Assembly: GCA_038046265.1 (NCBI GenBank)
Contig: JBBSWN010000010.1
Location: 75,091 to 139,090, forward strand
Length of the DNA: 64,000 nt
Reading direction: 5' to 3'
Origin: Nanobdellota archaeon
GTDB lineage: Archaea > Nanobdellota > Nanobdellia > SCGC-AAA011-G17 > JACPIM01
Shown here: one piece after another, positions 5,147-49,567 of the stretch
Numbering within the stretch: position 1 is the first letter of the stretch
How the letters are laid out: every line of letters starts with the position of its first letter
Position numbers and translations under genes: made by a program
The notes under the pieces: generated by a model
The model's database searches: none
Told to the model about the DNA's origin: nothing
What the model saw: the letters and a program-made list of their open reading frames with translations, nothing else

Positions 5147-5148
5147 TT

Positions 5149-6016: not shown

Positions 6017-6033
6017 CAGGTGAAACCTTGCTT

Positions 6034-6546: not shown

Positions 6547-6547
6547 T

Positions 6548-8502: not shown

Positions 8503-8503
8503 T

Positions 8504-8734: not shown

Positions 8735-9240
8735 TGTGAGACCTCTAAAGAGTATTTTTTGTTAATGAAGTCAATTGCTTCCTGTTTTGATATTCTATGC
8801 TTCATTGGGATTTTTCTTTTCATTATAGCTCTTTTTTTAATTCTAAAACCAGGCCTCTCCAATGTTACTGAAACATCAAAGCCTATAATTCCAATTGAAG
8901 CATCATACTGAAGGCCGGGAATATCAAGATATTCTGGAACCCCGAATGAAAAATTACCCTGGCTGTCAAATTTCAACAGTGTTACTTTTTCCTTGTTAGC
9001 TACAAGTATTCTTTGCAATAATTCTTCTGCTTTCTTTCCTCTTATAGTTACTTTACATCCTATTTGCAAACCAGGACGAATGTCCCAAGTAGGAATTCTT
9101 TTTTGTGTTGTTGTTGGAACTGGCTTCATGTTTGAGAGTTTATTCAATAATTTAAGGCCTTTTTCCAGTCTTTCACCTGGCCCGCCTGTGCCTATGTTCA
9201 AGGTGATCTTCGCTATCCTGATTTCTTTCATTTTGTTCAT
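8731..9240 (-). CDS. rpl5: 50S ribosomal protein L5 (uL5)
   Basis: Conserved position. Begins [19 protein letters not shown]. Confidence 0.85.
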
Positions 9241-19775: not shown

Positions 19776-21938
19776 ATGACTAGAGTTCTTGTAACAGGAG
19801 GAGCTGGATTTATTGGACACCATTTTATTAATCATTTGCTTGTAAATACTGACTGGGAAATTATTGTTTTAGATAAATTAAATTATGCAAGCTGTGGGTG
19901 GGACAGAGTAAGAGACATAAATGTTTTTAATCCTAAAAGAGTTTCTTTATTGTCTGCTGATTTTTCTCACCTTCTTGATCAGGGACTTGTAAAAGAAATT
20001 GGAGACTGCGATTATATTTTTCATATAGGTGCTGAGACGCACGTCGACAATAGTATTTTGAATCCAGAACCTTTTGTGATGAGTAATGTTGTTGGAACTA
20101 TGAGATTATTGGATTTAGCAAGAACAATGCCAAATTTAAAGAAGATGTTTGTTTTTTCCTGTTATGATCAAGATACATTTGCTTTAACTAAAAATGGAAT
20201 TAAAAAATTTGATGAAATCAAAGTAGATGATAAAGTTTTATCTATTAATCCTAAAACCGGCGAATTAGAAGAAAAGGATGTTGAGGCTGTAATTATTCAA
20301 GATTATGAGGGAGATATGTATCATTTTGAAAGTTCCAGAGCAGACATAAAAGTTACTCCAAATCACAGGATGTTTTTTGTTTCAAGTAAGGAAGGAATTC
20401 AAGTTGAAGAGGCTAGTGAAGTGGCAAAAAGATCAGTTGTTCATTTGCCAAGAGGAAACTGGAAGGGAGAAGATCAAGAAAATATTTTTTTAGAAGGAAT
20501 CGGTTATGTAAAAACAGAAGATCTTTTTTATTTATGTGGTATTTTTATTGGTGATGGATTTACTGCTAAGCAAATAAAGATTATGGAATCGAAGAGCGGT
20601 TTGACTAAATTAGAAAGAATGGATTTGGCAAGAGATTCTGAAACTGGCAGATTTATTAATACTGGAAAGATTGGGCCAATTGAAGTTGTGACTAGTACAA
20701 GCTGGAGAATATTTTTCGATATCCCTGTTTTAGATAAAGCGAGAGAAAGGCTGGAAAACACTTTACAAAGCTTAAATATTAAATATTCTGCACATTCTGG
20801 AAAGTCAGGAGAGCATATTTATTTTTCATCTAAAGAATGGCTGAAATTTTTTGAACAATTTGGAAAAGGTGCAGAAAATAAAAACATTCCTTCATGGATG
20901 CTAGAATATGATAAAAAATATTTGAAGTGTTTATTTGAAGGCCTTATTGATAGTGACGGATATTATGGCAAAAGCCACATTCAATATACTACAATATCTA
21001 AAAAGCTTTTAAAGGATATTTGTGAACTTGGATTTAAATTAGGAAGATACCCTTTTTTTAGAAAACGATATAGTGAATCTATTTTTGAAAACAGAGTAAT
21101 TAAAGGTTATGCTTATTATATTAATTTTCCATTACAAGATGTTAAAATTGGAAATAAAAATGTTAAAATAGAAAATTACAAGGGGAAGATATGGTGTCTG
21201 AAAGTAAAAGATAATAAAAATTTTATTGTTGCCAGAAATGGCAAACTAGCTTTCTGCGGAAATACTGATGAAGTTTATGGACACGCACCAGATGGTGTTG
21301 CTTACAAAGAATGGGACAGGCATAATCCAACAAATCCTTATTCTGCTTCAAAGTCAGGTGGGGAAATGCTGGCTTTATCGTATGCAAATACTTATGGTGT
21401 TCCTGTTGTTATTACAAACTGTATGAATGTTTTTGGTGAAAGACAACATCCTGAAAAATTTATACCAAAAGCATTGAATAAAATTCTTAAAGGAGAGAAA
21501 GTTACTTTACATTATTATCCTGGAAAGGAAAGACCGGGTGCAAGATTCTGGATACATGCAAGAAATGTTGCTGCGGCAATTATGTTTTTAATAGATCATG
21601 GAAAAGTTGGAGAGAAATATAATATTGTTGGAGAAAAAGAAGTTGATAATTTAGAGATTGCAAAAATGATTTCAAAAATTACTGGCAAAGAGTTAAATTA
21701 TGAAATTGATGATACTTATATGGACAGACCAGGACATGACTTAAGGTATGCTCTTGATGGAACAAAAATGAAAGAAATGGGTTGGCATATTCCAATTCCA
21801 TTTGAACAGTCGTTTGAAAAAACAGTCAGATGGATGGTGCACGAAAATAATTTAAGATGGCTTGATATCAGCACTTATTCTAAACTTGTGAATGGAAAAA
21901 ATGCCATGCAAAAAGTTGCACTTCAATCTATCAAGTAA
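19776..21938 (+). CDS. rmlB: dTDP-glucose 4,6-dehydratase (RmlB-type short-chain dehydrogenase) interrupted by an intein
   Basis: GGAGFIGHHF Rossmann motif and the YSASK catalytic motif. The conserved S-TDEVYG motif is split by 368 aa. The spliced extein would be 352 aa. Confidence 0.8.
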   Translation: MTRVLVTGGAGFIGHHFINHLLVNTDWEIIVLDKLNYASCGWDRVRDINVFNPKRVSLLSADFSHLLDQGLVKEIGDCDYIFHIGAETHVDNSILNPEPFVMSNVVGTMRLLDLARTMPNLKKMFVFSCYDQDTFALTKNGIKKFDEIKVDDKVLSINPKTGELEEKDVEAVIIQDYEGDMYHFESSRADIKVTPNHRMFFVSSKEGIQVEEASEVAKRSVVHLPRGNWKGEDQENIFLEGIGYVKTEDLFYLCGIFIGDGFTAKQIKIMESKSGLTKLERMDLARDSETGRFINTGKIGPIEVVTSTSWRIFFDIPVLDKARERLENTLQSLNIKYSAHSGKSGEHIYFSSKEWLKFFEQFGKGAENKNIPSWMLEYDKKYLKCLFEGLIDSDGYYGKSHIQYTTISKKLLKDICELGFKLGRYPFFRKRYSESIFENRVIKGYAYYINFPLQDVKIGNKNVKIENYKGKIWCLKVKDNKNFIVARNGKLAFCGNTDEVYGHAPDGVAYKEWDRHNPTNPYSASKSGGEMLALSYANTYGVPVVITNCMNVFGERQHPEKFIPKALNKILKGEKVTLHYYPGKERPGARFWIHARNVAAAIMFLIDHGKVGEKYNIVGEKEVDNLEIAKMISKITGKELNYEIDDTYMDRPGHDLRYALDGTKMKEMGWHIPIPFEQSFEKTVRWMVHENNLRWLDISTYSKLVNGKNAMQKVALQSIK
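20160..21263 (+). mobile_element. Intein (368 aa) with a LAGLIDADG homing-endonuclease domain, inserted in rmlB
   Basis: It starts with Cys (CYDQDTFALTKNG). Block B is KVTPNHRMF. Two LAGLIDADG motifs are present (LCGIFIGDGF and LFEGLIDSDGYY). The C-terminal block is NFIVARNGKLAFCGN, followed by a +1 Thr. Flanking exteins rejoin as FVFS|TDEVYG. Confidence 0.75.
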
Positions 21939-23798: not shown

Positions 23799-25187
23799 TT
23801 AGGCTGCGCTTGATAATTTAATTCCATACAACTGATTGTCTTTATAGCCTCTGAATTTATTATAAACAAGTTTGTAAAGATTTTTTATAGGTTTATTATC
23901 TGGCATGTTAATTAAGACTTTTAACAAACCAGTTTTGTATATAACTGGGTAAGCTGCTGCTACTGCAAACCATTTTTGTAGATGCTCTACTTGTTTTTTA
24001 TTTTTAAGTTTTACTATCGTGGTTTCAAAGAATTTAGGACCAATGTCATTAAAGTCACCTTCTAAAAGACCACGAGATATTGCATATTCTGTTAAAGGCA
24101 AGCCAGGATAAGGCTGGAATATTGAGCACCAAGCATATAAAGGCTTACATTTTATATTCATTTTTAATGTTTCTATGTCTGTTTCTAAACTTGATTCTGG
24201 CAAACCTAAAATATTCTGCAACATGATTTTTATTCCATATTTGTGCAATAAATCTGATGCTTTGTAGACTGTTTCCTTGTCCATTTCTCTTTTAATTACA
24301 ACATTTCTTATATAATCGTCTGCTGCTTCCAAAGCCATGTGAACTGAGTAACAGCCTGCTTCTTTTAATAAACGAGCTGTGTTTTCATCTACAGTGTTCG
24401 GCCTTACGTGACAATGGAAAGGCAAATTAATTTCTTTTTTATATTTTTCTGAGAATTCTTTTAACCAAGGCTTGTTCATTACAAAAATATCATCTTGAAA
24501 ATAAACAAATTTACCGCCATGTTTTTCAAATACTTGTTTTATTTCAGCAATTAAATTATCTACTGATCTCCATCTAACCCACCTTCCTTTTCCACCATAG
24601 ATTTTATCTATTGATGCATTGAAACAGTATTGACATTTATAGGCACAACCCCTGCAAGCTATGAAATGTCTTATTGGTTCATCTTTCCAGATTTTATGTT
24701 CATATGCAACATCTCTATCTGGAAAAGGCAATGTGTCAAGAGATTCATTTAGATTTCTAATTTCATTTTTGTAAATTTTTCCATCTTTTTTTATCCAAAG
24801 ATTTTGAATATTTGTGTAATCTTTTCCTTCGTCATAATTATTTGCCAATTCTGCTATTGCTTCCTCACATTCACCTTGCGCTACAATGTCCATTCCTTCT
24901 TCTTCTATTACTTGTGGGTGGAAAGTTGGATGTGAGCCACCCATTAAAGTCAAGAAATTATGATGTTGTTTTAATTCATTTGTTATTCTTAGAAATTCGG
25001 TTTGACCACCAGTCATTACAGAACCAGCTACAACATCGGGTTTAAAGTCTTGGACTACTTTTTTTAAATCGTCTTGGCCAATAACTGCTATTTTTGTCTG
25101 GTGGTTGTATTTTTTTAGAATTGCACTTATGTATAATAAACCTAAGGGTTCTACAGGATGCTTCCATGCTAAAAATAGAAATTTCAT
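23799..25187 (-). CDS. B12-binding radical SAM enzyme (probable methyltransferase class B)
   Basis: N-terminal cobalamin-binding Rossmann region (GGSHPTFHP), followed by the CAYKCQYC CxxxCxxC motif. Confidence 0.75.
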   Translation of the reverse strand: MKFLFLAWKHPVEPLGLLYISAILKKYNHQTKIAVIGQDDLKKVVQDFKPDVVAGSVMTGGQTEFLRITNELKQHHNFLTLMGGSHPTFHPQVIEEEGMDIVAQGECEEAIAELANNYDEGKDYTNIQNLWIKKDGKIYKNEIRNLNESLDTLPFPDRDVAYEHKIWKDEPIRHFIACRGCAYKCQYCFNASIDKIYGGKGRWVRWRSVDNLIAEIKQVFEKHGGKFVYFQDDIFVMNKPWLKEFSEKYKKEINLPFHCHVRPNTVDENTARLLKEAGCYSVHMALEAADDYIRNVVIKREMDKETVYKASDLLHKYGIKIMLQNILGLPESSLETDIETLKMNIKCKPLYAWCSIFQPYPGLPLTEYAISRGLLEGDFNDIGPKFFETTIVKLKNKKQVEHLQKWFAVAAAYPVIYKTGLLKVLINMPDNKPIKNLYKLVYNKFRGYKDNQLYGIKLSSAA

Positions 25188-25236: not shown

Positions 25237-26505
25237 TTAATAAGGTTCTATTTTAAGTTTGTCACTAATATCTTTTCCTTGTTCATGCATAAAAATTGTT
25301 TCTGCCATATAATCTATGCCGTCTAGAGTTCCATATTTTTCTTTTAAATCTTGATTAAAACTTCTATTAAATCGTGCTCGATCCACTGCTTTTTCTAATG
25401 ACTTTTTAGGATCGGAAAAATCTATTTCAACACCTAGCTCTAATCTCTCAACACCGTGATTATTCATTATTATTTCTGGATCATCCTTGGGTTTGTATGA
25501 TGGGAATAATAAACCCACATCTAATCCATGTTCTGCCAGCATATGAATAGACCAAACAGAAGACCAACCAGTTCGAGCTATCTGGGCTTTTATTCTTTGA
25601 TTTGCTATTTTAAATGGTGGGTGTTTAATTCCTCCGACTCGATTATTTAAATTGTCATCACTTGAATAAATCTGCAGACCCATTTCTTTAGCAATATCAT
25701 AAAAACCAGATTCTGCCAAACCCTGAATTCCTGTAACAACAACGTAAATTCCATCTTTAGGTAATTCAGTTGTATCTAATTTAGGAACATGCATTTGTGG
25801 TGGACAAGATAATTCTGTTGGTTTTTGTTTTTCTCTTCTTCTCACATAAGAAAATACTCCTGGATCAGAAACAAAATGGAGTTTCTGATAATCTGTTAAT
25901 CTTCCAGCTAAGGGGATTACTTTTTGGATTAATTCTGGATCTATCTGGACTTCGGGAAAACTTAAGGCTCTTGACAGAACTTCTGAAAAGTAGCCTGCAC
26001 CTGCATTCATGTAAAATGCATTTTGGTGTTGCAATCTTATTCTGTTATTAAAATCAAAAACTGCTGTTGTGTCTTTTAGATCTATAGCTACTTTTTCTCC
26101 TGTTAAGGTTTCAAGTTCTCTTTTTTCATTTTCAATTAGTTTTTTTAATTCTTCTTCATTTTCTGCATTATGTACTAAAAAATCTTTTAATGCTTCTTCA
26201 TAATCTGAACCTTTGAAAAAAACTTTATCTAATAAAGCTCCAACCTTTAAATCTAGTAAAAATTCACTAGGATGTTTTTCAAGAAAATCTTTTCCAGCTG
26301 CTTCTTCAGCTATTTCTTTCATAAATTGTTTTTGCCTTGACCCGGGTTCTTTGCCTTTGAAAGCATAGGAAGGAATTAAAGGAAAAACTGCTGGCAGTCT
26401 TTGAAGACCTAGAGCTTCTCTTTGATTATTGTAAGAAATAACAAAGTCAACCATTCTTGAGAACGGGCCATTACCATGAGCAAAATTAATATATATGTGT
26501 GACAT
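25237..26505 (-). CDS. Hypothetical protein (possible GT-B-like fold)
   Basis: 422 aa, not lysine-rich. The C-terminal ARTGWSSVWSIHMLAEHGLDVGLLFP loosely resembles a GT1/GT28 nucleotide-sugar binding region. Confidence 0.3.
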   Translation of the reverse strand: MSHIYINFAHGNGPFSRMVDFVISYNNQREALGLQRLPAVFPLIPSYAFKGKEPGSRQKQFMKEIAEEAAGKDFLEKHPSEFLLDLKVGALLDKVFFKGSDYEEALKDFLVHNAENEEELKKLIENEKRELETLTGEKVAIDLKDTTAVFDFNNRIRLQHQNAFYMNAGAGYFSEVLSRALSFPEVQIDPELIQKVIPLAGRLTDYQKLHFVSDPGVFSYVRRREKQKPTELSCPPQMHVPKLDTTELPKDGIYVVVTGIQGLAESGFYDIAKEMGLQIYSSDDNLNNRVGGIKHPPFKIANQRIKAQIARTGWSSVWSIHMLAEHGLDVGLLFPSYKPKDDPEIIMNNHGVERLELGVEIDFSDPKKSLEKAVDRARFNRSFNQDLKEKYGTLDGIDYMAETIFMHEQGKDISDKLKIEPY

Positions 26506-27500: not shown

Positions 27501-27734
27501 ATGGGAACTATAACCATAAATGTAAAAGATGATATTGAGAAAACTTTTAGAAAAAGAGTTTATCAGTTGTATGGCAAGAAAAAAGGAACTTTAGGAAAAG
27601 CACTAGCAGAAGCTATGAAGGAATGGAGCATGAAGAAAGAGTATTTTGATAGATGTATGGCTTTACTAGAAAGAGGAGCTGACATGGGTAAAATTAAGTA
27701 TAAAGAAAGAGATGAGCTGCATGATCGCGATTGA
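27501..27734 (+). CDS. Putative antitoxin (VapB-like)
   Basis: 77-aa basic protein that overlaps the start of the downstream PIN gene. Confidence 0.4.
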   Translation: MGTITINVKDDIEKTFRKRVYQLYGKKKGTLGKALAEAMKEWSMKKEYFDRCMALLERGADMGKIKYKERDELHDRD

Positions 27735-28131
27735 TACAAATATCCTTGTATACGCTTTTGATACTGCTTATAATGAAAAAAGAGAAATATGTAAAAAGAT
27801 TATTAATGAAATCTTTGAAGGCAAAAAAACCGGGGTTGTTACAAATCAAATTTTAGGCGAATTTGCTAATGTAGTAACAAGAAAAATTGAAAAACCACTA
27901 ACAAAGGAAGATACTATTTCAATTATAGGAGCAATATTAGTAAGTAAAAACTGGAAAGTACTAACCTATTCTGGAGAGACTGTGCTAAATGCTTTAAAAT
28001 TAAATAAAAACTTTTGGGATTCTGTTGTTATACAAACACTTAAGGAACATAATGTTAGAGAAATAATTACTGAAAATGTTAGGGATTTTGAAGGTTCTGG
28101 TTTGATTATAATTAATCCATTTGAAAATTAG
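27712..28131 (+). CDS. vapC: PIN-domain toxin (VapC-like)
   Basis: MIAIDTNILVYAFDT N-terminal PIN signature with acidic residues. Confidence 0.7.
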   Translation: MSCMIAIDTNILVYAFDTAYNEKREICKKIINEIFEGKKTGVVTNQILGEFANVVTRKIEKPLTKEDTISIIGAILVSKNWKVLTYSGETVLNALKLNKNFWDSVVIQTLKEHNVREIITENVRDFEGSGLIIINPFEN

Positions 28132-28134
28132 AAA

Positions 28135-29979
28135 TTATTTTTTAATTATTACATTCAGCCACATTGACAATCTGGCAAAAAATAATAAAATTGTCCAGTA
28201 AAATTCTTTTATTGTTCTTGGATAAGTTAAAGCTGAAATTGTGCCTTTCAAGATTTCATTTTTTAGGGATTTAACTTTGGCTTCTTTAATTTTTAATTTA
28301 TTCTGAATAACTTCATGCTTTTTTGCATGCAAAGATTTCTGTTCAAACCATTCATTTAATGTAACTGGATTTTTAACCAAAACTTTTGCGTTTTCAATGT
28401 ATTTTAATTTATAGAAATTTCTCCAGAAAATATATGGTATTAAATGATCTTCAGCAACTCCTAATGGAATTTCCTTTACAAAACCATTTTTGAATGCAAA
28501 TAAATAATTAGTGCCTTCAAAGAATTTTTCCTGCTGTGATAATTCTTTTCTTATTTTATGGGCGCCAGCATCCAGCAATAAATGAGACCAGTAGCCCACC
28601 AAGTTATTTTTTGGATTTAAGGAAATTGGTCTGCCTGTAACGCAGCCAACTGAAGGATCTTTAAAAGAGTTTAAAACTTCATTTATTGAAGAATTTGACA
28701 AGATTGCCAGGTCATTTGTAACTAAAATTATTTTGTTTTTTGCCAATTCAAGACCAGAATTTATTAAATTTGAGTTTTCTTTTTGAAGAACAATTTTTAA
28801 ATTAGGGTATTTTTTTGCAAGGTCTTTTGTATTTTTATCTTTTGATGATATTATTATTTCATATTGAACTGGGATTTTTTGGTCTACAATGGCTCTTAAT
28901 GATTTTTCTGTGTCTTCTAATTTATTTGACATTAATATTATTGACAAGGATTGTTTTTTTACTTCTATGGCTGCATTTAACAAGTCTTTTACATAAACTC
29001 CGTCTATACAACTAGGAATTCTGCCATCATATGAAGAGTAACAGCCAACACAGTCAGATGGTGTAAAGATTTTTAAACCTTGAGTGTACATTTCTATTTC
29101 CTGGGGTGCTGTCTGGCCGAAAAAAGTAATTGTGTTTCTTTTTAATGCCAATGATATATGAAGACCTAATGAATCTGATGTAACAACTGTGTCACAGATT
29201 GAGATTAAGGAAGCTAATTCAAAAATGTAATTTCCACAGCCAGCATTAATTAAAGGCACTCTTGCTTCTGTCAAAATTTTATTGTTTCTCTCAATTTGAT
29301 CAGGACCGCCTAATAAAATTATTTTAGCATTTAATTCTTTGTACAATTTTTGGATTAATTCTATTGTTTTGTCTATTGGCAGACTTTTTAATGGCCATCT
29401 CACGCCTGCTCCTGTGTTGATTCCGACTATGAAGTCGTCTTTTTTTAAATTGTATCTTCTTAGAAAATCTTTTGCAAATTCTTTTTGTTTTTTTGTCAGG
29501 ATTAAAATAGGCGGGTCTTTTTTGTATGTTAATTCTGACAAATCATAGATTAGTTCTGGATAAGTTTTCTTGTTTTTCTTTTTCAATACATCGTTCATTG
29601 GTTTTGGGCCAATCAAGGACATTTTAAAGTAATATTCAGCTGACTTTGTCGGAACTATTTTGTTTTCATTATTAACATAGTAACCATAGATTTTTGCTTT
29701 TTTATTTAAGAAATGAGAAGTTAAAGAACATGCTTCATAATCTTCATCCAGATTAATTACGATATCAAAAGTTTCTTGTTTTAAGTTAAGGATGTTTTCC
29801 TTGCCATAAAGAACTATTTTATTTATGTAAGGATTTGTTTTTACTAAGTCTAGGGCTTCTAATTTTGTGAACCATGTGATTTTAGAATTTGGATATTTTC
29901 TTTTTATACCAGTAAGTATACAAGTTGATCTTAGGACATCACCTAATGCACCTTGCTTTATTATGAGGATATTAGTCAC
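28135..29979 (-). CDS. Bifunctional glycosyltransferase: N-terminal GT9 (heptosyltransferase-like) fused to a C-terminal GT2-like domain
   Basis: The GTG start reads MTNILIIKQGALGDVLRS. The GT9 core is GINTGAGVRWP...LGGPDQ...VTSDSLGLHISLAL. A GT-A-like region of about 270 aa follows. Confidence 0.65.
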   Translation of the reverse strand: MTNILIIKQGALGDVLRSTCILTGIKRKYPNSKITWFTKLEALDLVKTNPYINKIVLYGKENILNLKQETFDIVINLDEDYEACSLTSHFLNKKAKIYGYYVNNENKIVPTKSAEYYFKMSLIGPKPMNDVLKKKNKKTYPELIYDLSELTYKKDPPILILTKKQKEFAKDFLRRYNLKKDDFIVGINTGAGVRWPLKSLPIDKTIELIQKLYKELNAKIILLGGPDQIERNNKILTEARVPLINAGCGNYIFELASLISICDTVVTSDSLGLHISLALKRNTITFFGQTAPQEIEMYTQGLKIFTPSDCVGCYSSYDGRIPSCIDGVYVKDLLNAAIEVKKQSLSIILMSNKLEDTEKSLRAIVDQKIPVQYEIIISSKDKNTKDLAKKYPNLKIVLQKENSNLINSGLELAKNKIILVTNDLAILSNSSINEVLNSFKDPSVGCVTGRPISLNPKNNLVGYWSHLLLDAGAHKIRKELSQQEKFFEGTNYLFAFKNGFVKEIPLGVAEDHLIPYIFWRNFYKLKYIENAKVLVKNPVTLNEWFEQKSLHAKKHEVIQNKLKIKEAKVKSLKNEILKGTISALTYPRTIKEFYWTILLFFARLSMWLNVIIKK

Positions 29980-30033: not shown

Positions 30034-30618
30034 TTAATCAAATTTTAGTTCGTCATCTTGAACATATTCAAGATTTTTTTGTAATGCCATATATGCTTTT
30101 TGAAGTTCTCTGCCTAAATATGCGCAATGATCTTTTCTAATAGCTAATTTTTCTTTATTGATTATTGTTTGGTAAATGTCAATTGGCTTTTTGCCTGTTA
30201 TTTTCAAGACTAATTTGTTTCTTTCATTGCAGAAACCAACTTCTATTAATTTTTTTTCTTTATTTACTCTTATTAAAAAATAACCTGCTGGATCTAATAC
30301 AAATTCCTTGCTATCATCATAGTCTGCTTTTACTTCCTTTACATTGTCTTGTTTTAATTCTGTTGTGACTATTTCTTTATTATCTTCTAGATTAATGACT
30401 TTGATTGAGTTTGTAGGACAGGAACTTGCTGCTTTTATTAATTTTTCTGCTTCATTATCTGGGAGCTCTAATTCTAGAACTTGAGTATTGTTATTTGTGT
30501 GGCCTTTTTTTAAGAATGCTTTATGGTTTTTTGATTCAAAGTGAGAAGGATCAATGCTAATGCAGCTTCTATTATCAATACATTTTTCCATATCTAATTC
30601 TACTCTTAATTTTTTCAT
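30034..30618 (-). CDS. Ferredoxin-like mono-cluster domain protein with a C-terminal domain of unknown function
   Basis: N-terminal C-x5-C...C-P arrangement (CIDNRSC...SSCPTNSI), as in single-cluster ferredoxins. The C-terminus contains a DPAGYF motif. Confidence 0.4.
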   Translation of the reverse strand: MKKLRVELDMEKCIDNRSCISIDPSHFESKNHKAFLKKGHTNNNTQVLELELPDNEAEKLIKAASSCPTNSIKVINLEDNKEIVTTELKQDNVKEVKADYDDSKEFVLDPAGYFLIRVNKEKKLIEVGFCNERNKLVLKITGKKPIDIYQTIINKEKLAIRKDHCAYLGRELQKAYMALQKNLEYVQDDELKFD

Positions 30619-30655: not shown

Positions 30656-31816
30656 TTATTTAGACTTTTTAAGCTTATTTATTGTTTCTTTATATAGATT
30701 TAAGGTTCTTTCTGCTATTAAGTCCCAATCATAGTTTTGGGCTTTTTCTTTATTATTTTTAGAGATTTTTTCAGCCAGCTTTTTGTCTTCCAGTAATAAC
30801 AGGATTTTTTCTTTTAGTTTTTGTATGTCGCCGTAATTTACAAAGAAACCGTTTTCAGGATCTTTTATTTCATAAGGAATTCCGTTTACAGGAGAGGCTA
30901 CTATTGGAAGGCCAGATGCCAAGGCTTCAAATAAAGTCAGAGGAAGGCCTTCACGAAAACTGGGCATTACATATATTTCAGAAGACTGGTACATTTTTGC
31001 TATTTTTTCTTTTTCCCTTATCGGGCCAAGGATAACTATATTTGGATCATCAGCAACTAATTCTTTTACTTTATTCAACATTCCTTCATCTGGACCAACT
31101 ATCAAGAATTTTATATCTTTTCTTTCTTTCAGGATTTCTTTTGCTGCCAATACAAACTTGTCAGGGCCTTTAGTTGGATTTAATCTTCCGAAGAACAAGA
31201 CGATTTTTTCTTTTATATTTAACTGTTTTTTGAAGTCATTGTTTTTAATTTTATTGAAGAATATTTTGTCTACACCATTTGGGATTACTATGATTTTTTC
31301 TTTTTTCCCACCATATTTTTCTATAAATGGGATTTCCCAGGGTGTAATTGCAATTATTTTATCTGAGAATTTAAAACTTATTTTGTTTATTGTTTTATAT
31401 GAAATGTTAACCAAGATTCTTCCTACCAAAGATCTGAAACCTTCTGTCCATGGACAATGAGTTGTGTGAACTAAGGGAGTTTTTTTTATTTTAGCTATTA
31501 TTGAGCCGAAAAAAGTATGGGCATGGCCTGAAACATGTGTGTGAATTATGTCGAATTTGTATTTTGATAATGTCCAGAGTAGAGAAGGAAAAATGGAGGC
31601 AAAACTTGCAACTTTTAAAATATGGAAATGCCTGTGAACGTGAACACCATTGATTGTTTCTTCTTTTGTTTTTATCCTGGATTTTTTATCCCAGTCTGAT
31701 GTAAATATATGAACTTCATGACCTTGCTTTACATATCTCTCTGCTAATTCTTTTACAACCTGCTCTACACCACCTATTGTAGGGTAGTAGAATGCTGTGA
31801 CATAGGCTATTTTCAT
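30656..31816 (-). CDS. Glycosyltransferase family 4
   Basis: Contains EGLPLTLFEALASGLPIVAS. The likely start is MKIAYVTAFYYP; the ORF-track start at 31837 is TTG. Confidence 0.75.
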   Translation of the reverse strand: MKIAYVTAFYYPTIGGVEQVVKELAERYVKQGHEVHIFTSDWDKKSRIKTKEETINGVHVHRHFHILKVASFASIFPSLLWTLSKYKFDIIHTHVSGHAHTFFGSIIAKIKKTPLVHTTHCPWTEGFRSLVGRILVNISYKTINKISFKFSDKIIAITPWEIPFIEKYGGKKEKIIVIPNGVDKIFFNKIKNNDFKKQLNIKEKIVLFFGRLNPTKGPDKFVLAAKEILKERKDIKFLIVGPDEGMLNKVKELVADDPNIVILGPIREKEKIAKMYQSSEIYVMPSFREGLPLTLFEALASGLPIVASPVNGIPYEIKDPENGFFVNYGDIQKLKEKILLLLEDKKLAEKISKNNKEKAQNYDWDLIAERTLNLYKETINKLKKSK

Positions 31817-31855
31817 GTGAAAAGGCTTAAAAACCAACTTTATATAGATTTTGCC

Positions 31856-32941
31856 ATGAAAATCTTGTATTCAAACAAATCGTTGTATCCATATGAAGGG
31901 GGGGCAGATATTTCTGCATTTACTTTGTTAGAACATTTGGCTGAAAAGCATGAGGTGAGTGCTTATTACATTGGAGACATAAAGGAAAATTCCAAAGTTA
32001 AGTTATATCCGCAAAAAATAAAGCAAAAAAAAGGATTATGGATTAATTTGTTTTTTTTAAGAAGAAAATGGAAAAAGATATTGAAAAAGGCCATTGAAAA
32101 AGAGAAACCAGACTTAATTATTTCACAAGATTATTTTATAGGGCCAAGCGTTAAAATTGCGAAAAAATATGGTGTTAAAAGCATTATTTTTTTGAGAAGT
32201 TATTTTCATTTAAGCATTGATAATTTTAAAAGTTATCTGCCAGAAGAAGGAAAGTTTACTAGCAAGGATTTAATTTATCAGTTACAATGGCCTTTTTTTA
32301 AGTTTGTTGTAAAGGAAAGCAAGTGGGCTTTAAAAAATGCTGATTTAGTTTGCTCTGTAAGTAATTATATGAGAGATGTTACATTAAAGTTTTGCAATGT
32401 CAAGAGCGAGGTTGTAAGGCCATTTGTTTCTTTTAATGAATGCAAAGCAGAGAGAAAGGGGGATTATATTTTGTATATTAATCCGGACAAGCACAAAGGA
32501 AAGGAGATTTTTGAAAAAATTGCAACTTTACTGCCTTTGAAAAAATTCTTAGTGGCTGGAAAAAAAGACTATAAAACTGAGTTAATGAATGTTGATGTTG
32601 TTGGTTTTGAGGACAAGAAAGAAATTTATTCAAAAGGAAGATTATTGCTAGTGCCTTCTATTTTTCCTGACCCTCATCCTAGAGTTGTGGTAGAAGCTAT
32701 GGTTAATGGAATTCCCTGTGTTGTAAGCGACAGGGGCGGATTAAGGGAAGAAGTGGGGGGAGCGGGAGTTATTGTTGAGGATATTTTTGATATTGATGAA
32801 TGGGTTAAAAAAATAAAAGCTTTTGATGATGAAGAGTTTTACAAAAAAATGAGCAAGTACAGCCAGTTTAAAGCTTTGGAATTTGAGGACAAAAGGCAGT
32901 TTATCAGGTTTGAACATTTACTAAGCAAGTTATTTAATTGA
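31856..32941 (+). CDS. Glycosyltransferase family 4
   Basis: Contains PRVVVEAMVNGIPCVVSDRGGLRE. The first ATG is at 31856; the track's start at 31817 is GTG. Confidence 0.65.
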   Translation: MKILYSNKSLYPYEGGADISAFTLLEHLAEKHEVSAYYIGDIKENSKVKLYPQKIKQKKGLWINLFFLRRKWKKILKKAIEKEKPDLIISQDYFIGPSVKIAKKYGVKSIIFLRSYFHLSIDNFKSYLPEEGKFTSKDLIYQLQWPFFKFVVKESKWALKNADLVCSVSNYMRDVTLKFCNVKSEVVRPFVSFNECKAERKGDYILYINPDKHKGKEIFEKIATLLPLKKFLVAGKKDYKTELMNVDVVGFEDKKEIYSKGRLLLVPSIFPDPHPRVVVEAMVNGIPCVVSDRGGLREEVGGAGVIVEDIFDIDEWVKKIKAFDDEEFYKKMSKYSQFKALEFEDKRQFIRFEHLLSKLFN

Positions 32942-34448
32942 GGAATTTTTTTGATATTTTATTTTTTAAATCTTTTATTAAGTCGAGGTCATCTTTATCT
33001 AGAATTTTTAATAGGTAAACTAGTGATGAATATACTACTAAAATAAACAAGGATGTAATTATCAAGTTAATTTCACTGGAAAATTTGATGTAGTTTTTAA
33101 AAATCAATGTCAAAACTAAAGTTAAAATTAAAGCGATGAAAATTTTTACGTAGTTGAACATAAACGGATGAAGTTTTGTAAATTTATATGAAGTTAACAT
33201 CATTAAAATGGCACCAATAAAGAAAGACAAGGACGTTGCAATTGATGCCCCGACAATACTGTATTTTGGAATAAGGAAGTAATTTAATATTATATTTGAG
33301 AGAGCAAAAATTGCAATTATAATGAAGATTGTTTTTGTTTTCTTTATTACAGAAAGAAGATTCATGCTGATATCACTTAATGAGAAAACTAAGTAACCAA
33401 TGCTTAAGATTGTTAATGGAAGGGCTGCTGATATGTATTCTGATCTAAAAAAAGTAAGAACTAGGTCTTTTGACAACAAGAAAATTATCAGGAAAATAGG
33501 TATGTTTAACAGCAGGGAATATTTTGAGACTTTTTTGTAAATATCACTTATTTGATCTAGGTTGTTTTTACCGTATAGTTCTGATATAATTGGCATGAAC
33601 AAGTACATAATTCCATATATTGGGACTATGATTAAGGTTGAGGTTGGAAGAGCAACATTATATATTCCAACGTCTGAAGTTGTCTTGAAATAACCTATCA
33701 TTAACAAGTCAGTCCAGGCGATTATAAACCACATGAAGTTTTTCAGCATTAAAGGCAGGGAATAATTCAACAATTCTTTTTTGTTTTCTTTTTCTTTAAT
33801 TTCTCTGGAAAATATACTGAAAATTTTCTTGTTGAATGCAAATAATGACAGGAAAAAAACAATTATTATTGAGAGTACGAAACCAAGCAAAGCACCATAT
33901 AATTTAAAACCAAGAGTTATTAAAATAAAAGTTATTATTAATCTTAATGATTTTTCTGTTAATTCCTTGAAAAGGACTTCGTATTCTGGTTTTTGGAATG
34001 CCCTGAATGAAACAAGGATTAACTGGAGAAGTGTGGAGAAAGGAAGAGCAATTGCGATGAACAAAATAACTTTTGTAAGTTCATATTCATCAAAAATTCT
34101 GCTTGAAATAAAGTCAGAGAAGACAATGAGAAGAACTGCAATAAACAAGCTTGAATTTAAGACTGTTTTTAAAGATATTAAAAGAGTATTTTTAACCAAT
34201 GCCTGGTTATTTTTGCCATTGTAAAAAGGAATAAATCTCAAAATGCCTTCATCTAACCCCATCAAAGCAAGAGCGCTAGAAAAGGACAATACTGCAAGGC
34301 CAAGGCTTAACAAGCCGTAATCATGAGAACCTAATTTTATAGCAACAAGAACAACATATAAGTAGGAAAATAGCTTACCAAAGACCATTGAAAATAAAAC
34401 AAGGAAAGCTCCTTTCACTATTTTCTCCATATAAGGCAAAGAATCCAT
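32934..34448 (-). CDS. Oligosaccharide flippase (Wzx/MOP superfamily)
   Basis: 504 aa with about 12-14 TM helices and a MATE-like repeat. Confidence 0.65.
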   Translation of the reverse strand: MDSLPYMEKIVKGAFLVLFSMVFGKLFSYLYVVLVAIKLGSHDYGLLSLGLAVLSFSSALALMGLDEGILRFIPFYNGKNNQALVKNTLLISLKTVLNSSLFIAVLLIVFSDFISSRIFDEYELTKVILFIAIALPFSTLLQLILVSFRAFQKPEYEVLFKELTEKSLRLIITFILITLGFKLYGALLGFVLSIIIVFFLSLFAFNKKIFSIFSREIKEKENKKELLNYSLPLMLKNFMWFIIAWTDLLMIGYFKTTSDVGIYNVALPTSTLIIVPIYGIMYLFMPIISELYGKNNLDQISDIYKKVSKYSLLLNIPIFLIIFLLSKDLVLTFFRSEYISAALPLTILSIGYLVFSLSDISMNLLSVIKKTKTIFIIIAIFALSNIILNYFLIPKYSIVGASIATSLSFFIGAILMMLTSYKFTKLHPFMFNYVKIFIALILTLVLTLIFKNYIKFSSEINLIITSLFILVVYSSLVYLLKILDKDDLDLIKDLKNKISKKFLN

Positions 34449-36845: not shown

Positions 36846-37982
36846 ATGACTTTAAACCAGTTTTCTAATGCTGAAAGAATGGCTTATCAGGTAATTAGGA
36901 AAATACCAGCAAGAATAAAGAATCCTTTAGTTGCAAATATCAATAGATTTAGAGTAAAGAGAGTGAAGAATTTTCAAACACCACAAAATTTGATTTTTTA
37001 TGTTACTGATTACTGCAATGCAAGATGCTCTCATTGTTTTTACTGGAAGAATTTGAACAAGAGACAAGATGAAATGACATTAGATCAAATAAAGACAATG
37101 ATAAAATCATTGAAAACACAATTAAACATGCTGGTAATCACTGGTGGGGAGCCTTTTATCAGAAAAGATCTTTATGAGATATGCTCTGCTTTTTACCAGA
37201 TAAACAAGACAAAAAGAATTAACATTGTGACTAATGGATTATTAGGAACTAAAATTCTTGATACAGTAACAAGACTAGTTACTGAAAATCCTGATAAAAG
37301 ACTGACTATTATTGTTTCTTTAGATGGTTTAGAAGACACGCACAATATGATAAGAAGAGTTCCTAATATATGGAAAAAGGACATTGAATTAATTGATGAT
37401 TTAAAGAAAATTGCTGAACAGCATTCTAACTTGTCATTGTTTGTAAATTTGACTATGACAAAGACAAATATACATGAAGTAAAGCCTTTAAGCAAATTTG
37501 TTAAAGATGAATTAAAGATTAATTTTAAGGTAAATGTTTTAAGGACAGGAAAAAATTATTATCAAGTTCCAAAAGAAATTTTAATGGATTATGAGCCTGA
37601 GATTTCCAACCAGCCAAGTGTTGAGGAATTAGAAGAAGTTTATGAATGGATGGACAAAGAGACTGAGGATTTACCAGGAAAAGTTGAGGTTTTGAAACTA
37701 AAGCACTCAATTGACATGATAAAGCATGAGAAGCCAACTTTAAAATGTTTGGCTGGGTATAATGACGGGGTGGTTTTTCCAACTGGGAAAGTTGCTATAT
37801 GCGAGCCTACAAAATCTTTTGCAGATTTAAAAGATTATAATTTTGACTTTAACAAATTATGGAATTCTAAGGAAGCCCAGTTAATGAGACAGCAGACTAG
37901 CGAGTGTTTTTGTCTGCAATCCTGCAACTTGCTTAATTCTATGAAATATGACACAGCTACACTTAAAAACCTGCTAAAGTAA
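36846..37982 (+). CDS. Radical SAM enzyme with a C-terminal SPASM/twitch Cys cluster
   Basis: CNARCSHC CxxxCxxC motif plus a C-terminal Cys-rich region (CEPT...CFCLQSC). GGAGGG lies upstream. Confidence 0.7.
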   Translation: MTLNQFSNAERMAYQVIRKIPARIKNPLVANINRFRVKRVKNFQTPQNLIFYVTDYCNARCSHCFYWKNLNKRQDEMTLDQIKTMIKSLKTQLNMLVITGGEPFIRKDLYEICSAFYQINKTKRINIVTNGLLGTKILDTVTRLVTENPDKRLTIIVSLDGLEDTHNMIRRVPNIWKKDIELIDDLKKIAEQHSNLSLFVNLTMTKTNIHEVKPLSKFVKDELKINFKVNVLRTGKNYYQVPKEILMDYEPEISNQPSVEELEEVYEWMDKETEDLPGKVEVLKLKHSIDMIKHEKPTLKCLAGYNDGVVFPTGKVAICEPTKSFADLKDYNFDFNKLWNSKEAQLMRQQTSECFCLQSCNLLNSMKYDTATLKNLLK

Positions 37983-44997: not shown

Positions 44998-46338
44998 TTA
45001 ATAGCCACCTTTCAATAAAAAGGTTTTTCCCATGTCAAACAAGTACTTTGCTTCATGAACAGAAAACCTTTTCATGAATGAAGTAAAATAAGCTGGCCTA
45101 AGGTAAAATCTTTTTAAAAAGTATTTGTATCTTTTGTTTAACTCAGGATCTTTATTATAAAAGTAAAGCAAGCCATCCCAATTACCTTCTTTATATTCTT
45201 CATCATATTCATCAAACAAAGGAGAGCCTGGAACTGGTGTGAAAAAAGACAACCATAAATAGTCTGGATTTATTTTCTTTGCAAGAGAGACGCTTTTTTC
45301 TAAGTCTTCCCATTCTTCACCTGGCAGACCAACAATAAAGTAGGATTTTGTTTTTAAACCAACTTTTCTTGCAACTTTAAAAGTTTCTTCAATCATGCTA
45401 ATGGTGATTCCTTTTCTTACATTGTTAAGGACTTTCTGGCTTCCGCTTTCAACGCCAAAAGAAACAACTTCACAACCTGCTTCTTTCATAGCTCTTAAAG
45501 TTTCTTCAGATATTTTTACTCTTAACTGCGAGGACCATCTTATTCCTAAATCTTTTATTGCTGCACAGATTTCTTGAACTCTGTCTTCTTCTGTTGTAAA
45601 ATTGACATCATCAAAAATAATGCTTCTTATTCCGAATTTTTCCTTAAGCATTTTTATTTCGGCAACAATGTTTTCAGTGCTTCTATATCTAGTTCTTCTT
45701 TGAAATGTTGTGTAGTCTGCACAAAATGTACAAGTAAAAGGACAGCCTCTTGATGAATTTATTTGGGTTGTTAATTCACCTGGCTTGCAAACAAAACCAA
45801 ACTGAACTGTGCCTGCATATTTTTTTAAGTTTATTAAATGCCTTGCAGGGAAAGGAAAATTGTCTAAGTTCTCTTCAAGTTCACGAGGCTTGTTTTTATG
45901 TATGCCATTTTCATCTTTATATGCAAGGCCATCAATTTTACTTTGTTCTTTGCCCTGGCAATATTCCAGGAATGTCCATTCAGATTCACCGAAGCATGCT
46001 GCTTCACATTTTAATTCTTCAATTGTTCTTTCTGGAAATGCGCTTGCATGAGGACCGCCTGCAATTACTTTTGCATTGTGATCATGAGCAAATTTTGTCA
46101 AGTAAATAGCTCTTTTTATACAAGGACTTACCACGCCCAAGCCTACAATATCTGGCTTGAATTGCTTTACTGCGTCTTCAAAAATGTCACCACATAATTC
46201 ATCAACTATTTTGACTTCAAAATTATTAGCTTCCAGCATGCTGGCTACATATAAAAGACCAATAGGCTGATGCCTGCCGCCCACTGCTTTCATATTACCC
46301 ATGACGTCATTATCGACGCGAACCAGCAAAATTTTCAT
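44998..46338 (-). CDS. B12-binding radical SAM enzyme
   Basis: N-terminal cobalamin-binding domain (AGGPHASAFPE), followed by CPFTCTFC. Confidence 0.75.
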   Translation of the reverse strand: MKILLVRVDNDVMGNMKAVGGRHQPIGLLYVASMLEANNFEVKIVDELCGDIFEDAVKQFKPDIVGLGVVSPCIKRAIYLTKFAHDHNAKVIAGGPHASAFPERTIEELKCEAACFGESEWTFLEYCQGKEQSKIDGLAYKDENGIHKNKPRELEENLDNFPFPARHLINLKKYAGTVQFGFVCKPGELTTQINSSRGCPFTCTFCADYTTFQRRTRYRSTENIVAEIKMLKEKFGIRSIIFDDVNFTTEEDRVQEICAAIKDLGIRWSSQLRVKISEETLRAMKEAGCEVVSFGVESGSQKVLNNVRKGITISMIEETFKVARKVGLKTKSYFIVGLPGEEWEDLEKSVSLAKKINPDYLWLSFFTPVPGSPLFDEYDEEYKEGNWDGLLYFYNKDPELNKRYKYFLKRFYLRPAYFTSFMKRFSVHEAKYLFDMGKTFLLKGGY

Positions 46339-47231: not shown

Positions 47232-48356
47232 TTATTTTTTGTAAAGAGGATGGAATAACAAATTAATTTCAGTCTGGTTGTTCCAGAAACAAGCTCTGCA
47301 CTCTCGAACTTTTTCCCTGTCGTTTTTAATTTCATTTGAGTACCAGTATTCTTTAAGAGGTGTCTTGCGAATATTAGGACCTTTGTCTACTTCACCTTCC
47401 ATTCTAGGGAAACATGGATAAATGTCACCATAAGCACCTATACATAATGTTGCGTAGCCAGCATAGCAAGAAAATGGAAGTTTTTTATGGGCAAATGCAT
47501 CTTTAAAAAGTTTAAGATACGCCAAAGAGTTTTCAATAGCTTTTGACTTTTGTCTGATATTAATTAATTGGTCTACTGCTCTGTTTAATTTTTCTATTTT
47601 TTCTTCATCAATTTTAAATTCTGAGCTGTTTTCCTTTCCTGTGCTAAACAAGCCAATGTCATGGAACGGCATGAAACTAATATGATCAACACCTTTTTTC
47701 TTAAGAATAGTAACTAAATCAATTAATTGATCAACATTATAATTGCTTACTACATTAACTACGACAATTTTTATTCTGCTTTTCAATTCTTTTCTTAATT
47801 CAACTATGTTATCTATTGCTTGCAATACTTTTTCGTAAGAGCCATTGCCACGGATAGCATCATGTGTTTCTGGCAAAGCGCCATCTACAGAAAAGCCAAT
47901 GGCATCTAAACCAGACTCTACAACTTTTCTTGCGATTTGCTTGGAAGCAATTATTGTGCCATTAGAAGACATATGAGTGACCATTCCTTTTTGCTTTGTA
48001 TATTTAATTAAGTCAAGCATGTCCGGCCTTAAAATCGGTTCACCGCCTGTAAAACCAATTCCTGCTGTACCTATTTCTGCAAAATCATCAATTAAATTGT
48101 ACATTTCTTCTGTTGAAAGCTCTTTTTTGTCATGCTGCTTGTCATATTCACCAGGACCTTTCCAAAGAAAACACATAGGGCATCTTAGATTGCATTTATA
48201 GGTAACAACTATTGAACCATGGAACGGGCCAGCATAGGATTTTCGTCTTGCACGGGAAAGAATTAGGCCACTGTATTGAAGCCCTCTTTTTGGACCAATA
48301 AGGACGTCACCTTCTACAGTTTTCTTTAATAAGTAGGATAAGTAGAGATCTCTCAT
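47232..48356 (-). CDS. Radical SAM enzyme (SPASM/twitch type)
   Basis: CNLRCPMC motif, with additional C-terminal cysteines (CYAGYATLCIGAYGDIYPCF...CRAC). Confidence 0.7.
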   Translation of the reverse strand: MRDLYLSYLLKKTVEGDVLIGPKRGLQYSGLILSRARRKSYAGPFHGSIVVTYKCNLRCPMCFLWKGPGEYDKQHDKKELSTEEMYNLIDDFAEIGTAGIGFTGGEPILRPDMLDLIKYTKQKGMVTHMSSNGTIIASKQIARKVVESGLDAIGFSVDGALPETHDAIRGNGSYEKVLQAIDNIVELRKELKSRIKIVVVNVVSNYNVDQLIDLVTILKKKGVDHISFMPFHDIGLFSTGKENSSEFKIDEEKIEKLNRAVDQLINIRQKSKAIENSLAYLKLFKDAFAHKKLPFSCYAGYATLCIGAYGDIYPCFPRMEGEVDKGPNIRKTPLKEYWYSNEIKNDREKVRECRACFWNNQTEINLLFHPLYKK

Positions 48357-48490: not shown

Positions 48491-49567
48491 ATGAATCCTA
48501 AAATGAAACCTCTTTACTGCATTTCGAAAAAATTATTGATGTCGAATTATAAAAGGCTAGATAGTCCTTGCAAGATTACATTTGCAATTACATATGCCTG
48601 TACATTTCTCTGCAAAACATGCAACATAGGAAAGAATTATTTAGCAAACCCAAGACAAACCAGAGAGGGAGAATTAAGTTATGAGGAAATTGGAGCAATT
48701 TTTAGGAAGGCAAGACCATCATGGCTTCAGATAACTGGAGGAGAGCCTTTTATGAGAAATGTTTACCAGATTTTAAAGTCAATTACAGAAAACAATGATG
48801 AACTTTATGTTGCTCATACAACAACAAATGGAATAGATACAAAAAATATTGTTGAGCAGGTAAAAAAAATTCTTGGTTTAAAAATTCCGCGTTTTGTTGT
48901 TTCTATAAGCGTGGATGGTTTTGAGGAATTTCACAATGAAGTTAGAGGGATAAAAGGTTCTTTTGACAAGTGCCTGGCAACTTTTTTTGAATTAAAAAAA
49001 CTTGAGAACAGGCATTTTAATGTTTTTATAAGCTATACATCTTCTCCTTTTAACATGGGCAGAATAGAGACATTTATACAAGAGATGGGGAAGAAATATG
49101 GAATAGAACCAAAGTACATACACATGAATTTATACCACACATCAAGCCATTATTTTAAAAATACAGAGCAGCAGAAGACAGAAGATTATAACAAAAATGT
49201 GCTTAATGAAATAAGAGCTTACAGGAGACTTAAAAAAGGAAATGACTGGAAGGTTAGTTTTTTTGAGAACAGGTATTCCAAGTTTGTTGAGAAATTTGTT
49301 GAAACTGGGAAGTCTCCTCTGCCGTGCAAGGCATTAAATTCTTCCTGTTTCATGGATCCTTATGGAAATGTTTTTCCCTGCCTGGTGTGGACAAAGAAAT
49401 TAGGGAATATAAGAGAATTTGATTTAGATCTGAAGAAATTATGGCAAGACCCTAATGTTGTAAAAATGCAGGAAGATGCAGAAGCTTTAAGATGCCCAAA
49501 CTGCTGGACTCCCTGCGAAGCTTATCAGACAATTGCAGGCAACATAGGGAAAAGCTTGATAAAGTAA
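48491..49567 (+). CDS. Radical SAM enzyme (SPASM/twitch type)
   Basis: CTFLCKTC motif plus C-terminal cysteines (CKALNSSCF...FPC...CPNCWTPC). Confidence 0.7.
   Translation: MNPKMKPLYCISKKLLMSNYKRLDSPCKITFAITYACTFLCKTCNIGKNYLANPRQTREGELSYEEIGAIFRKARPSWLQITGGEPFMRNVYQILKSITENNDELYVAHTTTNGIDTKNIVEQVKKILGLKIPRFVVSISVDGFEEFHNEVRGIKGSFDKCLATFFELKKLENRHFNVFISYTSSPFNMGRIETFIQEMGKKYGIEPKYIHMNLYHTSSHYFKNTEQQKTEDYNKNVLNEIRAYRRLKKGNDWKVSFFENRYSKFVEKFVETGKSPLPCKALNSSCFMDPYGNVFPCLVWTKKLGNIREFDLDLKKLWQDPNVVKMQEDAEALRCPNCWTPCEAYQTIAGNIGKSLIK

Follow-up and report, generated by a model that had tools for sequence, protein, structure and literature searches.

Structurally described relatives of the glycosyltransferase analysed here are found in CAZy family GT9 and include the Escherichia coli proteins WaaF (1PSW) and WaaC (2H1H and 6DFE). 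The gene lies in a 64-kb window of contig JBBSWN010000010.1 of a Nanobdellota archaeon (the window being the whole stretch of DNA that was analysed, to which all positions refer) and encodes a GT9 module fused to a GT2-like module. The protein is 15–18% identical to WaaC and WaaF and reaches about one-third of the cutoffs of the heptosyltransferase equivalog models; it differs from these enzymes in its additional cysteine knuckle, in its fused GT-A module and in having no ADP-heptose genes nearby. It is 16–17% identical to 3TOV, a GT9 protein of Veillonella parvula deposited as a structural-genomics entry with no assigned function, which is a single domain of approximately 349 residues with no GT2 fusion and lacks both the cysteine knuckle and the NDxLKKKNKKT loop. 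The autotransporter heptosyltransferases TibC and AAH (4RAP) are 13% identical and have a different cysteine spacing; TibC, in addition, is characterized by an N-terminal β-barrel, a β-hairpin thumb, a dodecameric assembly and a protein substrate. Higher similarity is found to a bacterial cysteine-rich GT9 subfamily, which is 33–40% identical across the whole GT9 half, has the same CxCCYK..C...PxC knuckle and shares the neighbour types GT4, B12-binding radical-SAM (S-adenosylmethionine) and PMT_2, but differs in its N-terminal four-cysteine extension, in the absence of a GT2 fusion and in forming a separate clade with 100/100 bootstrap support. The GT2 enzymes compared were PcManGT (6YV7, a Pyrobaculum mannosyltransferase) and the hyaluronan and cellulose synthases (7SP7/8SNC, 4P00). 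Unlike these synthases, the window protein is without a transmembrane pore and contains no more than one hydrophobic helix, and it is therefore not a processive secreting synthase; its clade also lacks their D, DxD and R motifs. The open reading frame (ORF) and its two modules are:

28135..29979, minus strand: whole two-module glycosyltransferase ORF (GT9 plus GT2-like), 614 residues, GTG start
28975..29979, minus strand: GT9 (GT-B) module, residues 1–335
28360..28974, minus strand: GT2-like (GT-A) module, residues 336–540, with degenerate nucleotide-sugar and metal motifs

Our preferred reading, which we hold with moderate confidence, is that the gene represents a two-module DPANN family in which the GT9 module is a working, membrane-tethered transferase acting on a lipid-linked glycan, and in which the GT2 module has probably become an inactive scaffold in the clade of the window protein (the window clade). 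The gene itself is an ordinary, already annotated member of a widespread, unstudied DPANN family and not a signature of bacterial capture; the NCBI copy of an identical protein carries the label ‘MAG: glycosyltransferase family 9 protein [Nanoarchaeota archaeon]’, where MAG denotes a metagenome-assembled genome.

Both modules had been proposed in an earlier note on this DNA, and both are borne out. Pfam PF01075 (Glyco_transf_9) matches residues 66–304 with 53 bits (gathering cutoff 22), the DSLGLH motif named in that note lies at residues 269–274, and no other GT-B family emerged in a hidden Markov model or fold search; the GT9 assignment stands. The GT2-like domain is real as well, resting on a marginal match to PF00535 (Glycos_transf_2; residues 347–462, 25.2 bits against a cutoff of 23.3) and on its GT-A fold. 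PF13641 scores 23.3 bits on the GT2 half of the window protein, under its cutoff of 27, and clear matches to PF00535, PF13641 and PF13632 are found in family members outside the window clade. In an AlphaFold2 model built from 120 homologues (predicted local distance difference test score, pLDDT, 92.7; predicted template-modelling score 0.92), the GT9 half adopts a GT-B fold of two Rossmann lobes whose nearest solved structures are GT9 enzymes, and the C-terminal half adopts a GT-A fold. The N-terminus, MTNILIIK, agrees with those of the homologues. A promoter and terminator scan gave no signal above shuffled background.

The catalytic residues of the GT9 half are intact in all 11 members of the window clade and almost invariant among the 120 aligned family members:

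29938..29940, minus strand: Asp14, predicted catalytic base, aligned to WaaC Asp13 (D in 119/120)
29386..29388, minus strand: Lys198, aligned to the donor-phosphate contact WaaC Lys192 (K in 119/120)
29158..29175, minus strand: DSLGLH motif D269...H274, aligned to WaaC D261...H266 (D in 118/120, H in 120/120)
29563..29595, minus strand: conserved basic loop NDVLKKKNKKT, residues 129–139 (K133 invariant; N129, D130, L132, N136 and K138 at least 90% conserved)
29008..29052, minus strand: cysteine knuckle CVGCYSSYDGRIPSC, residues 310–324, at the end of the GT9 C-lobe, predicted metal site (C310 and C313 at least 90% conserved)

The module would act as an inverting GT-B transferase, in which Asp14 activates the acceptor as a base and Lys198, residue 228 and the D269-x4-H274 pair hold the nucleoside diphosphate (NDP)-sugar as in WaaC. 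The basic loop may bind a phosphorylated or membrane-bound acceptor. The CxxC...PxC cluster is also present in stand-alone archaeal and bacterial GT9 relatives; it is the least confident region of the model (pLDDT approximately 66). By analogy with the iron finger of TibC (PMC4358343), the knuckle probably binds a metal and stabilizes the fold.

The presence of the GT2-like half was correctly read in the earlier note, which overlooked that the DxD motif and four other residues invariant elsewhere in the family are absent. The family alignment of 120 sequences comprises 11 in the window clade (67–88% identical) and 109 outside it; E354, D399, D422, D424 and R550 occur in 109/109 of the latter and in 0/11 of the former, and the pattern of loss and retention is identical among the loci found in species representatives of GTDB. 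In the window protein, E354 is replaced by L, D399 by Q and R550 by L. All 109 sequences outside the clade carry the motif set ITAFKEP, DPGKGKSxALN, LTDGDV (the DxD), VAED and QKxRTxKAHE, together with a conserved C-terminal tail; all 11 clade members have a shortened GKGKS loop and have lost the tail. The window protein therefore lacks the DxD and the upstream nucleotide-binding acidic residues of GT2 enzymes and retains the catalytic-base (ED/TED) position of cellulose-synthase-like members, as E510-D511:

28708..28716, minus strand: N422-D423-L424 at the family D-G-D (DxD) position, at the end of strand 417–422 in the model
28447..28452, minus strand: E510-D511, the kept ‘ED’ catalytic-base motif (in the clade, E in 11/11 and D in 10/11)
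28141..28359, minus strand: three C-terminal helices, residues 541–561, 572–585 and 590–613 (model secondary structure), predicted membrane-interface anchor

The first of these helices carries a degenerate QxxR motif (QKSL), and the Q(Q/R)xRW-type motif is not found there, the window sequence being QKSLHAKKHE at the position of QKxRTxKAHE in the family. The last helix bears the invariant stripe W595/L599/R603/W607, which, like E510-D511, is retained despite the loss of the GT2 motifs. In fold comparison, the helices resemble the interface helices of hyaluronan synthase, the cellulose synthase BcsA and PcManGT, and would associate the protein with the membrane.

The GT2-like half is not decaying and evolves under purifying selection, with a ratio of non-synonymous to synonymous substitutions (dN/dS) of 0.06–0.24 compared with 0.04–0.09 for the GT9 half, rough values at which dS is saturated. 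It diverges relatively faster in the window clade only, where the identity gap between the halves is −0.118, compared with −0.005 elsewhere in the family. The clade’s GT2 module is probably inactive, its motif loss pointing to a non-catalytic membrane anchor or acceptor-binding scaffold. Two stand-alone GT2 homologues, at 4769-5614 of locus L049 and 5998-6771 of locus L051, also have degenerate motifs (FTDGNV, VAPD and QKIEH in the first; FSEGDS, VADD and QKVDA in the second), and GT2 catalytic residues may therefore have been lost more than once. The L049 gene adjoins a ferredoxin-DUF4346 gene and a GT4 gene 80% identical to that of the window.

The two-module architecture is widespread. At least 120 full-length homologues (coverage 98–100%, identity 39–88%, 604–666 residues) have the same module order, and those with labels come nearly all from Woese-, Pace- or Nanoarchaeota, with some labelled as unclassified archaea; the one exception among the protein labels, ‘Paceibacterota bacterium’ (P0079), is probably mislabelled or mis-binned. 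A scan of GTDB species representatives returned 71 loci, approximately 41 of which have the fusion; one of these belongs to the closed genome of archaeon GW2011_AR20 (CP010426). Approximately 28 further loci, in DPANN archaea and three Anaerolineae, have a stand-alone GT2 homologue of approximately 290 residues and no GT9 gene within 6 kb. A fused gene of the Pacearchaeota type, with 69% identity to the GT9 half in P0055, also lies on one 5-kb contig assigned to ‘Methanobacterium sp.’ (L034, JAQVTJ010000115.1); the contig was probably mis-binned.

When the GT9 half was searched by itself against 1.84 billion cluster representatives, 339 clusters were retrieved at E < 1e-30, made up of the fused family and two stand-alone groups, all with the CxCCYK..C...PxC knuckle at the end of the C-lobe. 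The first group (approximately 335 residues, 40–46% identical) has named members from Woese- or Nanoarchaeota only. The second (approximately 370–390 residues, 33–40% identical) has an extra N-terminal four-cysteine segment, and its named members are all bacteria (Thermodesulfobacteriota/Deltaproteobacteria, Nitrospirae, Omnitrophota and Pseudomonadota). In three of these bacterial relatives (P0292, P0140 and P0310), the extension spans approximately 35 residues with the pattern C-x9-C-x9-C-x2-C; it had no match in NCBIfam and Pfam scans, and its cysteine pattern makes a zinc ribbon or Fe-S site possible. Stand-alone DPANN genes are known for both the GT9 and the GT2 module, each of which can therefore act as an autonomous unit.

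A neighbour-joining (NJ) tree of the GT9 half (80 sequences, 325 columns, 100 bootstraps) separates archaeal from bacterial sequences with 100/100 support, recovers the window clade with 100/100 support, and places all sampled fused GT9 halves in a single clade together with one stand-alone sequence. The latter, P0130 (343 residues, at 530-1561 of locus L080), is 58% identical to the GT9 half of P0055 and lies near a GT4 orthologue and a PMT_2 gene; its nesting within the fused clade suggests that it probably arose from the fusion by secondary fission. The earlier note had suggested horizontal acquisition from bacteria, as a feature of the island, and had proposed a phylogeny of the GT9 domain as a check. 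The tree tells against it, the bacterial relatives forming a separate clade and not nesting with the fused archaeal sequences, as do the occurrence of the fusion in at least 120 proteins and approximately 41 DPANN species, the frequency of stand-alone GT9 genes (40–46% identical) among DPANN archaea, the synteny with GT4, and a composition typical of the window (GC content 0.294, z −0.9; GC content at third codon positions, GC3, z −0.2). Recent horizontal transfer was rejected on native GC and GC3, conserved synteny and the NJ phylogeny; by the same sequence comparisons, the GT9 is long resident in the DPANN lineage. One inter-domain exchange, in either direction, is plausible, and any such transfer would be ancient because the nearest bacterial relatives form a separate clade. 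Transfer of a whole cluster (GT9, GT4 and B12-binding radical-SAM genes) between bacteria and DPANN archaea is not supported either, as the neighbours of the bacterial gene in locus L081 are only 24–31% identical to those of the window, a generic family-level similarity.

The archaeal glycan-island setting described in the earlier note is also real, the sugar genes standing beside an archaeal ribosomal-protein operon: a ribosomal-protein/SecY operon occupies the leftmost 17 kb of the window, and the island extends from 16.8 kb to the right end. It contains sugar genes (RmlD, several epimerases/dehydratases, a DegT aminotransferase and a hexapeptide acetyltransferase) and glycosyltransferases (four GT4, three further GT2 and two PMT_2 GT-C), plus AsnB and a Wzx/MurJ-type flippase. 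Two of these genes bear directly on the pathway:

30656..31837, minus strand: GT4 glycosyltransferase, co-directional upstream partner (Pfam)
32934..34448, minus strand: Wzx/MurJ-type flippase (Pfam PF01943, PF13440 and PF03023), approximately 3 kb from the glycosyltransferase

A co-directional GT4 gene is found upstream within 2.5 kb in approximately three-quarters of the fused loci, either as an orthologue of the window type (53–90% identity) or as a second GT4 of the type in Pacearchaeota locus L001. A downstream PMT_2 GT-C gene is present in 21/29 evaluable loci outside the window clade and in 0/6 clade loci.

These features can be assembled into a mechanism. The three amphipathic C-terminal helices would keep the protein at the cytoplasmic side of the membrane, where the GT9 module, together with the upstream GT4, would add one sugar to a lipid-linked oligosaccharide, the most likely carrier being dolichyl (pyro)phosphate; a Wzx-type flippase could then export the glycan for glycosylation of surface proteins or the envelope. 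The GT2 module would be a minimal GT-A domain resembling cellulose synthase, hyaluronan synthase and PcManGT. In most of the family, both modules would add a sugar, giving two, because both keep complete catalytic motifs; in the lineage of the window, the loss of the GT2 residues would leave one active site.

Several points weigh against this mechanism. A literature search on archaeal GT9 or GT9–GT2 enzymes found nothing relevant, sequence alone was the basis for judging how the cysteine cluster is arranged and whether the C-terminal helices are amphipathic, and the dN/dS comparison carries the saturation noted above. Instead of a dolichol-linked glycan, the enzyme could use a glycolipid or a protein as its acceptor. 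The clade’s GT2 half could also be catalytic by another mechanism, because E510-D511 is kept and D423, one residue out of register, is invariant, and metal-independent GT-A enzymes without a functional DxD exist, for example WrtF (PMC12595478).

The last point can be extended to an alternative in which both modules are active in the window clade too, the GT2 half working without a DxD-bound metal, through D423 and other residues, so that two sugars are added. Purifying selection on this half is what such activity would predict, E510-D511 is kept in 10/11 and D423 in 11/11 clade members, and K424, present in 7/11, could replace the metal; the window protein, however, has L424 and not K. Five positions invariant elsewhere (E354, D399, D422, D424 and R550) were lost together, with deletions in the GKGKS loop and of the tail, and R550 is replaced variably by L, M, K, T, I, A, E or V. 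Since the replacement residues vary within the clade, relaxed constraint is suggested rather than a new motif. Only in this clade, moreover, does the GT2 half evolve at approximately twice the rate of the GT9 half, and we consider it unlikely that both modules are active there.

A second alternative concerns the acceptor. The family could build a membrane glycolipid or lipoglycan (on archaeol-type or scavenged host lipids) analogous to the lipopolysaccharide (LPS) inner core, and not an N-glycan precursor, with the PMT_2 GT-C completing it outside the cell. Bacterial GT9 enzymes have a glycolipid as their acceptor, PMT_2 is the usual downstream neighbour in DPANN archaea, the GT2 half has weak Pfam matches to GT21 (ceramide glucosyltransferase) in many members, and the conserved basic loop could accommodate the head group of a lipid. 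A bacterial cousin, in the Pseudomonadota MAG locus L082, belongs to a lipid A cluster, where it is flanked by LptFG on one side and by an ArnT-like PMT_2 gene on the other. Against this, no lipid-synthesis genes are adjacent, and AglB/STT3, an AglH-type transferase and Wzx occur in the same clusters, which points to the dolichol-linked protein-glycosylation route; in L001, AglB/STT3, the AglH-type PF00953 gene and Wzx lie within 10 kb, and in locus L079 a stand-alone GT9 relative shares a short gene cluster with STT3, approximately 7 kb apart. We consider the glycolipid route unlikely as well; the data at hand do not tell it apart from the dolichol-linked route.

The cluster in L082 deserves description of its own. 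Its cysteine-rich GT9 gene (8001-9119) is 39.5% identical to the GT9 half of the window protein and belongs to a lipid A/Kdo (3-deoxy-D-manno-oct-2-ulosonic acid) cluster in the order LpxD, FabZ-like, LpxA, LpxI, GnnA/B-like, LpxB, LptF/G, GT9, PMT_2, PAP2, GT2, PMT_2, PAP2, MsbA-like, WaaA. The adjacency of GT9 and PMT_2 mirrors the DPANN arrangement.

Still less probable is the explanation put forward in the earlier note, in which a bacterial ADP-heptose heptosyltransferase of the LPS type entered the island by horizontal transfer and adds heptose or a sialic-acid-like sugar. Archaea lack LPS and, with it, the Kdo2-lipid A acceptor. The best-scoring named families are indeed heptosyltransferases I, II and III, whose NCBIfam models align over residues 3–300, but the scores of 50–58 bits fall well short of equivalog cutoffs of 135–185 (57.6 against 185.3, 56.7 against 134.6 and 50.1 against 170.2), and the PRK heptosyltransferase models give 28–39 bits against cutoffs of 437–569. 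With 15–18% identity to WaaC and WaaF, these values mean that the GT9 half is not an orthologue of the LPS heptosyltransferases, as far as sequence comparison goes. The WaaC residues that contact ADP-heptose (K192, D261 and H266) and the base D13 are nevertheless conserved, the closest non-DPANN relatives are bacterial, one of them in the L082 cluster, and archaea have been reported to possess enzymes of NDP-heptose biosynthesis (PMC11461863). These points are set against a fusion present in approximately 41 DPANN species with conserved synteny, the 100/100 NJ split and native GC and GC3.

Gene content gives no better footing to a heptose or sialic-acid-like sugar. Among the scanned window ORFs of at least 110 residues (64 kb), none is of the SIS/GmhA, PfkB-cytidylyltransferase/HldE, HAD/GmhB or HddA/C type and none has a NeuB- or NeuA-type domain, the 64-kb window has no lipid A or Kdo genes, and the annotated flanks of five loci (L001, L002, L004, L006 and L007) have no heptose or sialic-acid genes. 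The sugar genes of the island point instead to 6-deoxy and amino sugars (RmlD, dehydratases, DegT and acetyltransferase). Use of heptose by the window GT9 is thus unsupported by its sequence context, and the sialic-acid-like sugars of the earlier note fare no better. A related proposal, equally improbable, is that the knuckle GT9 of DPANN archaea and anaerobic bacteria is a distinct subfamily which, in Woese- and Pacearchaeota, consumes NDP-heptose to build an LPS-inner-core-like heptosylated, lipid-anchored glycan, with the knuckle in a structural or regulatory role; if true, a heptosylated glycan would be built on cells unable to synthesize lipids of their own.

The preferred reading, a working GT9 beside a probably inactive GT2 module, sits in a neighbourhood that has been rearranged in the window clade. 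The remaining genes around the glycosyltransferase are:

30034..30618, minus strand: ferredoxin (4Fe-4S) fused to PterinBD-DUF4346, immediately upstream of the glycosyltransferase (Pfam)
27712-28131, plus strand: PIN-domain gene, convergent, 3 nt from the glycosyltransferase stop codon
26547-27407, minus strand: EamA transporter
25237-26505: unannotated 422-residue ORF
23799..25187, minus strand: B12-binding radical-SAM enzyme (Pfam), the clade’s usual downstream neighbour

The ferredoxin-DUF4346 gene is also upstream in clade loci L006, L007, L008 and L009 and not in the rest of the family; it probably serves the radical-SAM enzymes, for which it may be an electron donor, and not the glycosyltransferase. 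Radical-SAM orthologues 81–94% identical to that of the window lie directly downstream in L004, L006, L008 and L009; in the window, the PIN, EamA and unannotated genes intervene, in what looks like a local insertion. The clade has thus swapped neighbours, with ferredoxin-DUF4346 upstream, a B12-binding radical-SAM gene downstream and PMT_2 replaced, and this is one lineage that counts as a single event.

The island contains eight radical-SAM genes in all, an unusually high density; five are of the B12-binding type and three are others, two of the latter with SPASM domains:

23799-25187, 44998-46338, 51463-53031, 53094-54530 and 58885-60324: B12-binding radical-SAM genes, probable methyltransferases
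36846-37982, 47232-48356 and 48491-49567: other radical-SAM genes

In bacterial locus L081, the cysteine-rich GT9 gene is likewise preceded by one radical-SAM and two B12-binding radical-SAM genes. The density of such genes in the island and their presence in L081 suggest a recurring tie between the knuckle GT9 lineage and radical-SAM sugar modification.

Two further features of these islands were observed.

19776-21938, plus strand: 720-residue NAD-dependent sugar epimerase/dehydratase with an intein (Intein_splicing, residues 137–488)

The intein separates the two halves of the Epimerase/GDP_Man_Dehyd match in this protein; in L007, an intein is found instead in the B12-binding radical-SAM gene (905 residues) downstream of the glycosyltransferase. 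Pacearchaeota islands (482-2695 of L001 and 4069-7647 of L002) encode an ATP-sulfurylase fusion, an adenosine 5′-phosphosulfate (APS) kinase and a sulfotransferase-like protein, gene content that hints at sulfated surface glycans in this group.

The advance over existing annotation is modest, and comprises the family-wide architecture and synteny, the cysteine-knuckle GT9 subfamily and the clade-specific loss of GT2 motifs. This subfamily has thousands of members in archaea and anaerobic bacteria, for which the automatic label ‘LPS heptosyltransferase’ is without support, and the practical value lies mainly in correcting annotation and in offering a target for biochemistry. The window clade would also offer a clear case in nature of a bifunctional glycosyltransferase in which one of the two catalytic modules has become a conserved, probable pseudo-enzyme domain. 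DPANN archaea rely on contact with a host at the cell surface, and to our knowledge the synthesis of their envelope glycans is almost entirely unexplored. The two-module enzyme of Woese- and Pacearchaeota, mostly accompanied by GT4 and usually by GT-C neighbours, is an entry point to a DPANN glycan pathway.

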